Shown: in pieces, positions 6,841 through 10,473 of the stretch | Position numbering within the stretch: position 1 is the stretch's first letter | Layout: each line of letters opens with the position of its first letter | NCBI GenBank assembly: GCA_963664395.2 | Contig: OY761159.2 | Span: 896,001-960,000 of the forward strand | Reading direction: 5' to 3' | DNA length: 64,000 bases | DNA from: Candidatus Binatia bacterium | Lineage (GTDB): Bacteria > Desulfobacterota > Binatia > Bin18 | Position numbers and translations under genes: made by a program | The notes under the pieces: model-generated | What the model saw: only the letters and a program-made list of their open reading frames with translations | Database searches by the model: none | Told to the model about the DNA's origin: nothing

Positions 6841-6882
6841 TCCCCTCTCGGGAGGGGTGCCGCGCAGCGGCGGGGTAGGTTC
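6841..6882 (+). repeat. CCCCTC/GAGGGG double-hairpin REP-like repeat, copy A
   Basis: TCCCCTCTCGGGAGGGGTGCCGCGCAGCGGCGGGGTAGGTTC; near-identical to 12761-12802. Confidence 0.85.
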
Positions 6883-6888
6883 TACGGA

Positions 6889-9800
6889 GGGAATTATATA
6901 CGATAGTGCCGAAAGGATGGTTCACCGACCCAAGCTCCGATTCCAGCTTTGTTTTCGGGCTTCTGAAGTCGGCAGCCAGCCTCAAGAACCCACGCACCCT
7001 TCACAGCAATGAACGCTGCCGCGCGTCAGCTTTGCCGCCTTTGCTCTTGCGCTTTACGTCGAAGGCGCCGGCGGTGCGCAGGGTGTCGGCGCTAATGAGC
7101 GGACCGTTGCAGATGCGGGTGAGAAGGTCGGCTTGGCGACTTTCCAGGGCGACCAGACGGCCCAGGACATGGAGTACATTCAGGAGTTCCGTCGTGTATT
7201 CAGCGATCCAGCGGTCCGGCTGGATTTTCTCCAGGGGTGACGGGGGCCGCTTTTCACCGATGACGGGTCGTGTGCGGTCCTTCTTGCGGTAGCTGAACCA
7301 GTGGACCAGCACCTGCTTGCCCGAAACTTCGTACTGCCAGACCTCTGGCGGTACGTTGTCGATGAAGCCCTCACCCACCAGCAGGCGGCGCTTCCCGGCG
7401 TCATAGTCGATGCGGTCGGGCATCCGCTCCGGGTCGGGGGGGATGGTGCCGTCCCTGGGAATCCGCGGTCCTTCGCCCTTGGGCATCCGAGGCGCGCCGG
7501 CAGGTCGGCCGCTGGACGGGTCGGCGTATCGTTCGCCGAAGGTGTGCAGCCAGATTACCGCTTCGCCCAAGGCGACGGCTTCCGCGAAAAGGCCGGCGTC
7601 TCGGGTGAGAGGCAGGCGCAAGCCGGGTTGTACCAGATCGTCTTGAAAGCGGCGGGTGTAGCCGAGATGCGCCATGACAGCAGCCAGATAGGCCATGACC
7701 TGTTGACCGCAGACCGGCGTGCCAAGCTGCTCTGCCAGACAATCCAGGAAAGCCCCCTTCACGTTTGAAGCGGCGGCTTGGTTGTCGGCCCAGAGCGGAA
7801 AGACGCGCCCACCGCGCCCGTGATAGTGGTCGATGTCGCAGATTGAGGCGGTGAAGGTGACGCCAGGACCGCTTCTCGGAGAGGACTGGTGTAGGGCCGT
7901 TAGGAAAACCTGCTCGTCTGAGAAGCTTTCCCAAAGGGTTGGATTTGGCCGATTGATGATGCGGCCGTCCGGGATGATCCACTGCCGGTCAAACGACCGA
8001 AAGCCGTATCTTGTCGGGACGATACATTTCCCTGTGTCGGTCGCCACTGAGTTGGAGCGGAATTCGTGCCCATAGAGGCCGCTCTTCAATGGCTTGTTCA
8101 CATGCTTGTCACCGGGCTTCCCATTCACAAGATGAGGGTGAAAAAGTTCCTCCTTTTTGGAGGCGTCTGGCTCTTGCAGCAAAGCATCCCAGCGCGCTTC
8201 GAGCGATTGCTTGTCCGGGGCGATCACCCACACCCTGCCCGGCATCACGCCGGAGCCGTTGTATGTGAAGATGTCCTCTAAAGGCACAAAGTCGCCCCAA
8301 GCGCCTGTCGCCTTGGGCAGAAACGACGCGCGCGGCTCGTCCGGGCACGCGACCCAGCCGTCGTCTTCGAGGGAAATGCCGGCGAAGGCGGCGAATTTGT
8401 CCTCGCGGGTCTTGCCGTCCAGGTTGCGATAGCGAACCCGCGCGGGTCCGGGCGCCGCGGTTTGGCTCTTGCGCAGGGCCATGACGATGCAGACCGGTTG
8501 CTGAACCCCCTGAAAGACGCGGCTGCGAACGGGCGGCTGGTGGCCTTCCGGCGAGCAGTCGATCACCCAGATTTCGTCCGCCTTGGCCCGCAGGTCGGCG
8601 CGCATCTTTTGAAAGCCGGGGCCGTTCAGAAAGCCGGCCGCGGTGATGAAGCAGATAATGCCCGTCTGGTCGCGTTGCCGGCCTTTCTGCTCGGCAGGGT
8701 CGCCGTCGCCGAATACCTTCCAGGTGGCCCAGCGCCAGAAGTACACGTAGAGGTTGCGGAGGTGCTTGGCGTGCGCTCCGACGTTCCATTCGAGCGGCGG
8801 CATCCAGTCCGTGAGTGGTGCGGGTCGGTTGTCGCTGCCGTTCTCCACCCAGCCGCCCAGCCCCTTGGCGTTGGCCTTGTAGGGCGGATTGCCGATGACA
8901 ACGGTGATGCGCTCCTGCCGTTTGATCCGATTCGCTTGGCGGCGCGATTCGCCCAGCGGCATGAGGATTTGCGGGATGTGTTCCTCCTCGACGAACGGGT
9001 TGCCCAGGGTGTCGGTGACGAACAGGCGCATCGGGTCGGACCTGCCCGCAAACGCCTCGCCCGCAAGTTCCTTCAGCTCGGCCAGCAGGCGAAGCTGGGC
9101 CACCGCGAAGGGTCCAAGCTGTATCTCGAACCCGATCAGCCGTGGAATGGCGGCTTCGATCACCCCCGGAACCGCTCCCGGCCCTTGATCCGCTTCCGTC
9201 GTTTCGGCGATGCGCCGCAGCACACCCAGGAGATAGGTGCCGGTGCCGGTGGCCGGGTCCGCCACGGTCACGTCCGGCGAGGCCAAGCCTTCCGTCAGGC
9301 CAAAGTAGGCACTGGATTTCAGCGCTTCATCGACCAGCCGCACCATCGACATGACGACTTCCGGTAGAGTGTAGTACGACCCCGTCTTGCGCCGCAACTT
9401 GCTGTCGTAGGTGGTGAGGAACTTTTCGTAGAAGTAGAGCCACGCCTCCGGGTCGCCCTTGCTGATGACGTCCCAGTGCACGGCGTCCAGCACGCGCGTC
9501 AGGGTGGCCAACGAGGTTTTCAGGGGTTTCTGGTTTTCGGCGTCGTCGGTCAGGAGGCGCAGCGCCGTACCGATCAGGGTGTTGGTCTGGCGTAGCTCAT
9601 GGGCCACGCGGTCGAGGCCGTCGCTGAGGGTGATCTTGCGTGCCCGCGCCATGAGTAGCCCGAAAGTGACGGCCTGAGCGTAGCCGTCGGCAAAGGCTTC
9701 GTTCGTCGCGCTGGGGAACAGCAGCCTGCGCCAGTCGGTGGCGAGGTTGGTGAGCGGGCCGGAGCCCTGGTCCAGTTGCTCGGTCACTTCCTCACGTAAC

Positions 9801-10450
9801 AACCGGCAGAGCCGGGCCGTCAATTCGGCCAGCGCGGGTGCTGATTTCGGCGGTTGTGGCTGCCATTGGAAGAAGTCGGAGAACAAGCCCGGCAGGCTGG
9901 ACGGGGCCGTCAGCTTGGCGGCGGCGGTTTTGATATCGCCGTCGAGCGTGATGACTTTCCCTTCGATATCGCCGTTGCGCCACAGGCTGAAGGCGTTGCC
10001 GTCGGTATAGATCAGGTTCGGGAGGGTTTTCAGCTTCTCCCACTGTTCCCGGTCGTGCTTGTCGGTGAAGCGCCGGGGGTCCGCGCCCTTGCCCGGCGCT
10101 TTGACCTCGATGAAGCCCACCAGCGCCGCGTTGAGCGTGATCGCGTAATCGGGCCGCGTCTTCAGATCGGCCAGCGACGTCTCGCCCACGGCCACGATTT
10201 TGTCGCTCGGCAGACCGAGGAACTCCGCGATGTCGGAGATCAACCCTTCAAGCGGCGCTCTGAGCTGATCTTCGGGCGCGCCCGAAACCGCCGCGTTGCT
10301 GAGCTTGGCTTTTGCCCTGCTGCCGAAATCCGAGATAATCGCGTCGAGTGCCTTTCTCAAAGCCCTCACCACCAAGTCCTGCTACTTGAGTTGCTTGCCA
10401 TCCATTCCCTGGGCCGCCGTCACCATTTGGCACTATCGTATATAATCCCC
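6889..10450. mobile_element. Non-autonomous IS1595-family-like (ISNwi1-type ends) mobile insertion cassette carrying an R-M gene
   Basis: Left TIR GGGAATTATATACGATAGTGCC (6889-6910); right TIR (10429-10450) reverse complement GGGGATTATATACGATAGTGCC; direct repeat TCTACGGA at 6881-6888 and 10451-10458; no transposase inside. Confidence 0.85.
7001..10375 (-). CDS. Single-chain Type IIG/IIL-like restriction-modification enzyme (PD-(D/E)xK nuclease + N6-adenine MTase + Type ISP-like C-terminal specificity region, no helicase)
   Basis: RPDYAI...FIEVK nuclease motif, GSYYT, VADPATGTGTYL (motif I), VIGNPPY (motif IV), C-terminal YGFRSFDRQW and VWQYEVSGKQVLVHWFSYR. Confidence 0.9.
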   Translation of the reverse strand: MVVRALRKALDAIISDFGSRAKAKLSNAAVSGAPEDQLRAPLEGLISDIAEFLGLPSDKIVAVGETSLADLKTRPDYAITLNAALVGFIEVKAPGKGADPRRFTDKHDREQWEKLKTLPNLIYTDGNAFSLWRNGDIEGKVITLDGDIKTAAAKLTAPSSLPGLFSDFFQWQPQPPKSAPALAELTARLCRLLREEVTEQLDQGSGPLTNLATDWRRLLFPSATNEAFADGYAQAVTFGLLMARARKITLSDGLDRVAHELRQTNTLIGTALRLLTDDAENQKPLKTSLATLTRVLDAVHWDVISKGDPEAWLYFYEKFLTTYDSKLRRKTGSYYTLPEVVMSMVRLVDEALKSSAYFGLTEGLASPDVTVADPATGTGTYLLGVLRRIAETTEADQGPGAVPGVIEAAIPRLIGFEIQLGPFAVAQLRLLAELKELAGEAFAGRSDPMRLFVTDTLGNPFVEEEHIPQILMPLGESRRQANRIKRQERITVVIGNPPYKANAKGLGGWVENGSDNRPAPLTDWMPPLEWNVGAHAKHLRNLYVYFWRWATWKVFGDGDPAEQKGRQRDQTGIICFITAAGFLNGPGFQKMRADLRAKADEIWVIDCSPEGHQPPVRSRVFQGVQQPVCIVMALRKSQTAAPGPARVRYRNLDGKTREDKFAAFAGISLEDDGWVACPDEPRASFLPKATGAWGDFVPLEDIFTYNGSGVMPGRVWVIAPDKQSLEARWDALLQEPDASKKEELFHPHLVNGKPGDKHVNKPLKSGLYGHEFRSNSVATDTGKCIVPTRYGFRSFDRQWIIPDGRIINRPNPTLWESFSDEQVFLTALHQSSPRSGPGVTFTASICDIDHYHGRGGRVFPLWADNQAAASNVKGAFLDCLAEQLGTPVCGQQVMAYLAAVMAHLGYTRRFQDDLVQPGLRLPLTRDAGLFAEAVALGEAVIWLHTFGERYADPSSGRPAGAPRMPKGEGPRIPRDGTIPPDPERMPDRIDYDAGKRRLLVGEGFIDNVPPEVWQYEVSGKQVLVHWFSYRKKDRTRPVIGEKRPPSPLEKIQPDRWIAEYTTELLNVLHVLGRLVALESRQADLLTRICNGPLISADTLRTAGAFDVKRKSKGGKADARQRSLL

Positions 10451-10473
10451 TCTACGGATAGGGCGTACCTGGG

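Follow-up and report, generated by a model that had tools for sequence, protein, structure and literature searches.

A probable IS1595-family mobile insertion cassette with a Type IIG restriction-modification gene as its only cargo

Introduction

How does a gene that lies between the inverted repeats of an insertion sequence (IS), and is bordered by an exact target duplication, come to be where it is when nothing between the repeats could encode a transposase? This question is raised by a 3562-bp element in the genome of a Candidatus Binatia bacterium (assembly GCA_963664395.2). The element is located at positions 6889-10450 of a stretch of 64,000 nucleotides (contig OY761159.2, positions 896,001 to 960,000), which is called the window below and to which all coordinates refer unless another sequence is named. 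Its interior is taken up by one gene, for a Type IIG restriction-modification (R-M) enzyme. An earlier note, made from the letters of the window, had read it as a minimal mobile defence cassette. This reading is supported, as the same unit was found with a second target duplication at another locus in a sister species, and we conclude that the element is very probably an IS1595-family cassette that carries a Type IIG R-M gene and is mobilized in trans.

Results

The element has IS-type ends and no transposase gene

The element and its borders consist of the following parts.

6889..10450, no strand: whole element, a 3562-bp transposase-less cassette
6881..6888, no strand: left copy of the target site duplication (TSD), TCTACGGA, sequence read directly
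10451..10458, no strand: right copy of the TSD, TCTACGGA, sequence read directly
6889..6910, plus strand: left terminal inverted repeat (TIR), GGGAATTATATACGATAGTGCC; identical 22-mers bracket IS1595 transposase genes elsewhere
10429..10450, minus strand: right TIR, which reads GGGGATTATATACGATAGTGCC on the minus strand
7001..10375, minus strand: the single cargo gene, Type IIG restriction endonuclease-methyltransferase P0001 of 1124 amino acids (aa), assigned by PADLOC, Pfam and motifs

The TIRs are identical at 21 of their 22 bp, and according to a repeat finder the pairing continues over 30 nt (6887-6916 and 10423-10452) with 90% complementarity. In the 64-kb window the 22-mer, at up to three mismatches, matched only the two element ends, and it matched 0 of 100 dinucleotide shuffles. 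Duplications of 8 bp are a property of the IS1595 family, and those of the element agree at 8 of 8 positions (TCTACGGA); by an arithmetic estimate, chance alone would give such an exact match of the flanks about once in 65,000 cases. The GC content is 63.2% in the element versus 56.9% in the main contig.

The gene at 7001-10375 is the sole long open reading frame (ORF) inside the element and covers 3375 of the 3562 bp, so that only 112 bp and 75 bp are left outside it, in which no transposase fits. A match to a DDE transposase was not found in the element, the 112-bp and 75-bp end segments included. Members of the IS1595 family encode a DDE transposase with an N-terminal zinc ribbon (PF12762 and PF12760; NF033547), and the window element encodes neither. 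This lack of room and of a DDE match implies that it is an IS derivative and not an IS. What it does possess, IS-type inverted repeats and a passenger without a transposase, is what defines a mobile insertion cassette. The earlier note had described the TIRs at 6889-6910 and 10429-10450 with 21 of 22 identical positions, the 8-bp repeat that flanks them exactly and the single R-M ORF that leaves no space for a transposase, and all of this was found again in the sequence, the ORF having in addition a full-length PADLOC match to a Type IIG model.

Each end of the element, when read outward, finishes ...GTATATAAT(C/T)CCC with a perfect outward-facing TATAAT -10 hexamer inside. These hexamers, which were not called by the promoter scan, could drive neighbouring genes.

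The same cassette is present at another locus in a sister species

In the sister species G006 a copy of 3583 bp without a transposase is present at L072:589-4171. Its TIRs match the left TIR of the window element at 22 of 22 and 21 of 22 positions, it is bordered by a perfect TSD (TCCGTGGA) inside a repetitive extragenic palindromic (REP) hairpin, and its ORF of 1126 aa is 92.5% identical to P0001 at the aa level. Over 3540 aligned nt, which include the non-coding ends, the two elements are 92.4% identical, with a 15-bp indel in these ends, whereas the host flanking genes reach an nt identity of only 78-85%. The flanks of the two elements are unrelated, and the elements lie at different loci with different TSDs. 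In the window genome the locus occupied in G006 is uninterrupted, with flank identities of 85% and 96% and the sequence ...CCTATCCCC TCCATGGA GG..., in which TCCATGGA occurs once. The empty sites are reciprocal, each of the two genomes being without the cassette at the locus that is occupied in the other.

The presence of one transposase-less unit at two loci with reciprocal empty sites excludes independent loss of the transposase in situ. Judged from these two genomes, the unit has inserted at least twice in its transposase-less form, in two species, at two loci and with two duplications, and this is the strongest evidence that the unit itself would be able to transpose.

Autonomous IS1595 elements have identical ends

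The exact 22-mer was found in nine stretches of metagenome contigs, eight of which have an IS1595 transposase match. Both ends are present in six of the nine, with a perfect 8-bp TSD in five and 7 of 8 matching positions in one. Identical 22-mers bracket IS1595 transposase genes in L162, L204-L208, L210 and L211, so the cassette shares its TIR with transposase-bearing elements. The IS of L204 is found again in L206 (99.7%), at an unrelated site and with another TSD, and L207 and L210 represent the same insertion. Within the genus, genome G004 contains a same-ended IS of 2438 bp (L080) with an intact transposase of 311 aa and a perfect TSD, TCCGAGGA. All same-ended transposases tested scored above the NCBIfam IS1595 cut-off (169-184 bits versus 75), and the Pfam domains DDE_Tnp_IS1595 and Zn_ribbon_IS1595 are present in them.

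In L204, L206, L207, L208 and L211 a second copy of (A/C)AATAGTGCC, absent from the window cassette, was observed 45-60 nt inside the transposase-proximal end. This copy, which may be a site for autoregulation, overlaps with a promoter-like sequence, TTGAC-N17-TA(c/t)AAT, that is located upstream of the transposase gene.

The window's own assembly has five IS1595 DDE matches, of which only that of IS-H is an intact gene. IS-H (G000:C1:635254-638384; L017:7255-10385) is 3131 bp long, is situated between thiE and dnaB, and encodes a 311-aa transposase together with a 501-aa N6_N4 methylase-HNH fusion as passenger. Its ends, GGGACTAATATACTTGAC... (GGGACTAATATAC...), agree with those of the cassette at 11 of 13 tip positions and are different further inside, and a TSD is not present. 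Elements of G012 with IS-H-like ...TACTTGAC ends have perfect 8-bp duplications.

As to the subgroup, the ISNwi1 group is said, in the account of Siguier, Gagnevin and Chandler of 2009 and of ISfinder, to have ends of the form ggnnatTAT and to duplicate 8 bp of the target, its members with passengers measuring about 1.7-4.7 kb. The GGGAATTAT and GGGGATTAT ends fit this consensus, and ISNwi1 is a candidate subgroup label. Homologues of the L080 transposase are unnamed, and its plasmid matches, of at most 45.5% identity, are annotated only as 'IS1595 family transposase'.

Same-ended units carry many different passengers

A looser pattern for the end family was present in 12 of 31 genomes, namely the own genome, 10 of the 18 of the same genus, the one of the same order and 0 of the 11 others of the same class. 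The reversed pattern, used as a control over the 31 genomes, gave no match. Eleven matches are in the own genome; 24 of the 27 others were fetched, those left out being one in G005 and two in G019. A scan of genome_contigs for the ends yielded at least 85 stretches, and the matches listed span, by their record titles, Acidobacteriota, Rhodothermales, Poribacteria, Latescibacterota, Dehalococcoidia, Alpha- and Gammaproteobacteria, Thermodesulfobacteriota, Nitrospinota and others. An IS1595 transposase match was obtained at 32 of the 80 genome_contigs loci listed. Perfect 8-bp TSDs border 17 of 30 candidate end pairs among the genome_contigs matches listed and 9 of 13 paired elements in the relatives.

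Among the transposase-bearing elements that were scanned, the passengers are an MT-A70 methylase with a BglII-like nuclease (L204), an Eco29kI-like nuclease (L207), a D12 methylase (L208), Type III mod and res genes (L211), an N6_N4 methylase with an Eco47II-like nuclease (L155), a methylase-T5orf172 protein (L162), a methylase-HNH protein (L130) and a Clp-protease-like gene (L106). Of the units without a transposase, element G of the own genome (C1:4213187-4216215; L013) is a 3029-bp cassette taken up by a 964-aa MmeI-family Type IIG gene, with the TSD TTCGAGAG. The same-ended element E (C1:2831462-2834524; L011) of 3063 bp encodes a methylase-HNH fusion and a 245-aa protein, and upstream of the methylase-HNH gene it has a weak remnant of a DDE C-terminus, which at 21.5 bits is below the cut-off. 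The 245-aa gene is found alone (77% identity) in a 1042-bp cassette of G006 (L086); when the 250-aa cargo that L086 shares with element E was searched against the Atlas, the best score was 0.80 and no lead emerged. Other transposase-less units of the own genome contain a Big_7 protein (TSD ACCGCGAG) or a 155-aa ORF, and those of the relatives a SIR2 protein, HEPN_Apea, HNH_5 with PDC-S52, an HTH protein, a 250-aa protein or, in one unit of 515 bp, no ORF. In view of these passengers the cargo of same-ended units is often but not always defence-related. Candidate pair F of the own genome (C1:3425191-3428122) was dropped, as 8 of the 24 positions are mismatched between its ends and a duplication is lacking.

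At four genome_contigs loci, elements that have the same IS1595-type ends and measure about 1.28-1.31 kb (L094:40-1312, L107:801-2081, L131:2240-3520 and L141:4788-6095) possess a TnpB-like gene (OrfB_IS605 and Cas12f1-like TNB) as their sole gene, without an IS1595 transposase or an IS200/IS605 or IS607 TnpA. Their TSDs match at 8 of 8 positions in L094 and L141 and at 7 of 8 in L107 and L131. It seems unusual for TnpB to ride in a cassette with inverted repeats of the DDE type.

Composites of 11.5-11.7 kb with the same end family were observed in G018 (L075:557-12256) and G012 (L090:587-12069), with the perfect TSDs TCCAAGGA and TCTGGAGT respectively. They contain two IS1595 transposases, an IS1-like transposase, M10-peptidase/Big_7-like proteins and a P63C-domain protein, and share blocks of 96-99.9% identity in a rearranged order.

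The cargo is a Type IIG enzyme

P0001 matches the PADLOC model REase_MTase_IIG (PDLC03631) with residues 13-1104 on model positions 7-1054 of 1086, at 1315 bits. Pfam assigned a Type_ISP_C recognition domain to residues 701-1065 (2e-68), next to a weak N6_Mtase match. The N-terminus has a PD...ExK-like motif (D76, E90 and K92), and the methylase motifs DPATGTGT and NPPY lie at 373 and 496; PDB matches (LlaBIII, LlaGI and 7lo5) cover the methylase region only. The sequence of P0001 thus combines the nuclease, methyltransferase and recognition domains on one chain, which is the hallmark of Type IIG.

Like the Type IIG/IIL enzymes MmeI and DrdV (7lo5), P0001 is a single chain in which a PD-ExK-like N-terminus is followed by a gamma-type NPPY methylase and, at the C-terminus, by the recognition domain. 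It differs from the MmeI family in that none of the Pfam domains MmeI_N, MmeI_hel, MmeI_Mtase and MmeI_TRD was found in it, whereas the 964-aa cargo of the sibling element G has all four. With the Type ISP enzymes LlaGI and LlaBIII it shares the Type_ISP_C recognition domain, but it lacks the helicase-like ATPase motor that separates nuclease and methylase in LlaGI-like enzymes, no helicase or ATPase module being matched in P0001 by Pfam. The absence of both the MmeI-specific domains and a helicase module indicates that P0001 is a Type IIG enzyme that belongs neither to the MmeI family nor to Type ISP. It is presumably active and self-sufficient.

A distant Type IIG paralogue was observed in the own genome at G000:C1:471161-474043, with 38% identity, an open frame of 1015 aa and no family ends nearby.

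The insertion lies between the arms of a REP-like doublet

The surroundings of the element, all outside it, comprise the following features.

6590..6676, minus strand: tRNA-Leu(CAA), found by ARAGORN, about 200 bp left of the insertion
6841..6881, no strand: left arm of the REP-like inverted doublet that served as target, found by inverted-repeat search
10476..10516, no strand: right arm of the same doublet, found by inverted-repeat search

The arms are 41 nt each and 80% complementary, with the insertion between them. They are copies of a dispersed REP-like unit, tCCCCTCnnnnGAGGGGTGCCGCGnnaGCGGCGGGGTGGGT, the 14-nt core of which matches the own genome 60 times; 99 CCCCTCNNNNGAGGGG hairpins were counted there. 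The REP-like unit is present in the window at 6798-6888 and 10459-10528, and often forms inverted doublets with variable spacers across the own genome.

Uninterrupted paralogous doublets in G005 and G004 read ...GGCGGGGTGGGT TCTACGAA TGGGACATACC... and hold one 8-mer, TCTACGAA, that is nearly identical to the TSD TCTACGGA. These sequences show that the element, downstream of tRNA-Leu, inserted between the arms of a REP-like hairpin doublet and that 8 bp of the spacer were duplicated. At the level of the genus, eight of nine perfect duplications lie within the hairpin CCCC|TCNNNNGA|GGGG or a close variant, the favoured target of the IS family there, whereas outside the genus, in other phyla and in metagenomes, the targets are mostly AT-rich 8-mers with no REP nearby. 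When folded, the intact doublet forms a hairpin with the target 8-mer in its loop, weakly so (z = -1.74, 12 of 200 shuffles being as stable).

In relatives of the same genus (about 80% nt identity) the tRNA-Leu and the sequence downstream of it adjoin the small gene that is located at 10537-10914 in the window, either directly or after 214-737 nt. Neither the cassette nor a 3.5-kb insert nor a family end (at most two mismatches) was present at any of the eight syntenic loci fetched from them. The host-REP doublet itself is missing at the syntenic tRNA-Leu junction in several relatives, which suggests that the doublet may be mobile.

The occupied site is present in public data

The occupied junctions were bridged with 0-3 differences in contigs (Logan) of four public runs from four studies, one of the four being labelled as a sponge metagenome. 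Bridges of at least 31 letters on each side were present at the left junction in X19 and X2 and at the right one in X19, X21, X1 and X2. Two joints, 6881 to 10476 (X21 and X2) and 6882 to 10472 (X1, with 19 other letters between), were considered as an empty allele and rejected; their sides equal the 41-nt REP arms, and they therefore come from other REP doublets. A megablast search of the PLSDB plasmids gave no match to the cassette.

Discussion

The element at 6889-10450 is very probably a mobile insertion cassette, derived from an IS1595 lineage with ends starting GGGRATTATATAC and itself no longer autonomous. Of the parent only the TIRs of about 22-24 bp, the presumed recognition sites of the DDE transposase, would have been kept, with one Type IIG R-M gene as the whole interior. 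Its movement would be catalysed in trans by the transposase of an autonomous same-ended IS, as suggested by the existence of autonomous elements that have identical 22-nt ends and carry R-M passengers themselves. The cargo enzyme would protect and restrict as a self-contained defence or addiction module, and retention of the cassette would thereby be favoured.

Several observations weigh against mobilization in trans of a functional defence cassette. In the window's own assembly, which is 95.9% complete, no same-ended intact transposase was found, which makes present-day mobility there doubtful; nor was a same-ended autonomous copy found in G006, where neither of the two DDE matches is bracketed by family ends. 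Beyond about 24 bp the ends of the cassette have nothing in common with the subterminal regions of the autonomous elements, and at 0 of the 80 genome_contigs loci listed are a transposase and a P0001-like gene present in one element. Distant homologues of P0001 (at most 64% identity), which come from 21 other genomes among 400 sampled in the phylum, are flanked by the TIR at 0 of 26 loci. In the promoter and terminator scan no promoter-like site or terminator was predicted for the cargo gene. Lastly, no assignable empty allele of the window locus was seen in the contigs of the four public runs.

The last result also bears on the age of the insertion, which the earlier note had taken to be recent. 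With occupied junctions in runs of four studies and no empty allele, the insertion is real and widespread but not demonstrably recent, and that part of the note could not be upheld. Its expectation of an empty site was borne out by the relatives, where none of the eight syntenic loci holds the element, and by the uninterrupted G006 site in the window genome, but not by the public contigs. The cognate transposase that it had predicted turned up with identical 22-nt ends at IS1595 genes in eight of the nine metagenome stretches and with ends of the same family in L080, and was not found in the own assembly. A family of same-ended cassettes with different cargo and different 8-bp TSDs was found, as it had supposed, in the own genome and in relatives, and the same TIR does flank the gene of G006 that is a close homologue of P0001 (92.5% aa identity). 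Of its assignment to IS1595 and ISNwi1, the family follows from the same-ended transposases, and the subgroup is a candidate label that follows from the end consensus.

It is possible, if not quite probable, that the cassette is by now a fossil, once mobile and at present a fixed, immobile and domesticated defence gene, the compatible transposase of which is gone and the ends of which are relics. The lack of a same-ended transposase in the own assembly and in G006, the occupied junctions in runs of four studies with no empty allele, and the 7.6% divergence between the window and G006 copies are all in line with this. However, the TIRs still agree at 21 of 22 and the TSD at 8 of 8 positions, same-ended autonomous IS are present in a sister species and in co-occurring metagenome contigs, and repeats often remain unassembled, as they may have in an assembly of 95.9% completeness. 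This explanation concerns the present state only, and agrees with mobilization in trans as to the origin of the element. Given that no same-ended transposase was found in the present genome, the copy there is probably stranded, unless the divergent-ended IS-H cross-acts.

That a full IS with a transposase and a Type IIG passenger landed here and then had its transposase deleted, the transposase-less form never having transposed, is very unlikely. Element E with its DDE remnant does resemble such a decay product, and the intact IS-H has a passenger of the same kind as the methylase-HNH gene of element E. However, the G006 copy has the same architecture and, apart from the 15-bp indel, the same non-coding ends at an unrelated locus with a perfect TSD of its own, junctions that independent deletions would not yield twice, and the 112-bp and 75-bp end segments are devoid of a DDE remnant. 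Close to refuted is the proposal that the R-M enzyme or host recombination at REP moves the unit and that the inverted repeats are derived from REP and not from an IS: the insertion does lie in a REP-like doublet, the end of the REP hairpin, GGGG, resembles the TIR tip, and the authors of an earlier study left open whether R-M products act as a transposase (Furuta et al., 2010; PMC2853133), but in other phyla and metagenomes the same ends are inserted in AT-rich 8-mers and there is no REP nearby, IS1595 transposase genes lie between identical ends, 8-bp duplications are the signature of the IS1595 family, and same-ended cassettes with unrelated cargo (SIR2, HEPN, HTH or no ORF) show the same duplications.

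R-M genes in transposase-less units with TIRs and 8-bp duplications have been known since 2010. Furuta, Abe and Kobayashi described a Type II R-M system of X. oryzae with 65-bp inverted repeats and a Type IIG homologue of N. gonorrhoeae with 26-bp inverted repeats, both with an 8-bp duplication and without a transposase, and suggested a transposase acting in trans; they also cite Siguier 2009 along with other accounts of IS that flank R-M systems or solitary methylase genes (Furuta et al., 2010; PMC2853133). These units resemble the cassette in having R-M genes between TIRs, an 8-bp duplication, no transposase and a single 8-bp copy at the empty site of a related genome. They differ in that, in the account given of them, they are unique in their genomes and are tied to no IS family, whereas the ends of the window element are common to many transposase-bearing IS1595 elements and to sibling cassettes, and the same cassette occupies two loci.

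Mobile insertion cassettes and the passenger-carrying 'transporter IS' of IS1595 are likewise established concepts (PMC3129680). An example of the former is MIC231 of IS231 from Bacillus cereus (PMC3129680; PMC3281130), which, as described there, also has IS ends, no transposase, one or more passenger genes and an expected mobilization in trans by the cognate transposase. It belongs to the IS4/IS231 family, in contrast to the IS1595 ends and the defence gene found here, for which mobilization in trans is deduced. The likeness to a transporter IS resides in the same-ended transposases that pass the Pfam and NCBIfam IS1595 models, the 8-bp duplications and the passenger-carrying forms of 2.4-6 kb, and the difference in the loss of the transposase from the window element. 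A description of IS1595-group cassettes with R-M cargo was not found in the literature searched, which did not cover Siguier 2009 or the supplementary tables of Furuta et al., the latter of which may hold further cases. In PMC6211672, PMC9296519 and PMC3467074 the name IS1595 comes up only briefly or among the references. What the present comparison appears to add is the assignment to an IS lineage, the identical ends on autonomous partners, the two reciprocal insertion sites, the sibling cassettes, the targeting of REP hairpins and a bias towards R-M passengers across phyla. The cargo itself is an uncharacterized Type IIG enzyme.

As a tentative extension, one IS1595 lineage, that with GGGRATTATATAC ends, might be a dedicated shuttle of R-M and single-gene defence between phyla. 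Its passenger slot would be swapped among Type II, Type IIG and Type III systems and methylase-nuclease fusions, its transposase would repeatedly be shed to leave minimal cassettes, the R-M cargo would stabilize these by post-segregational killing, and the spread among co-resident bacteria of many phyla would be one source of the enrichment in R-M systems and transposases that is reported for sponge symbionts; several of the runs that contain this locus have the label sponge metagenome.

The cassette provides a concrete mechanism for the orphan observation of 2010 that R-M genes reside in transposase-less units with inverted repeats, and points to a whole IS lineage, in many phyla by the record titles, the passengers of which are mostly R-M modules. 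Ends of 22-24 bp and a transposase of about 310 aa would make a very small system for the delivery of cargo. The finding raises the testable question whether, in dense host-associated communities, small IS-borne defence cassettes drive the turnover of defence genes and cause R-M systems and transposases to be enriched together. Sponge symbionts, for which R-M enrichment together with abundant transposases has been described (PMC11410982), are a setting in which a cross-phylum shuttle, if true, would matter.

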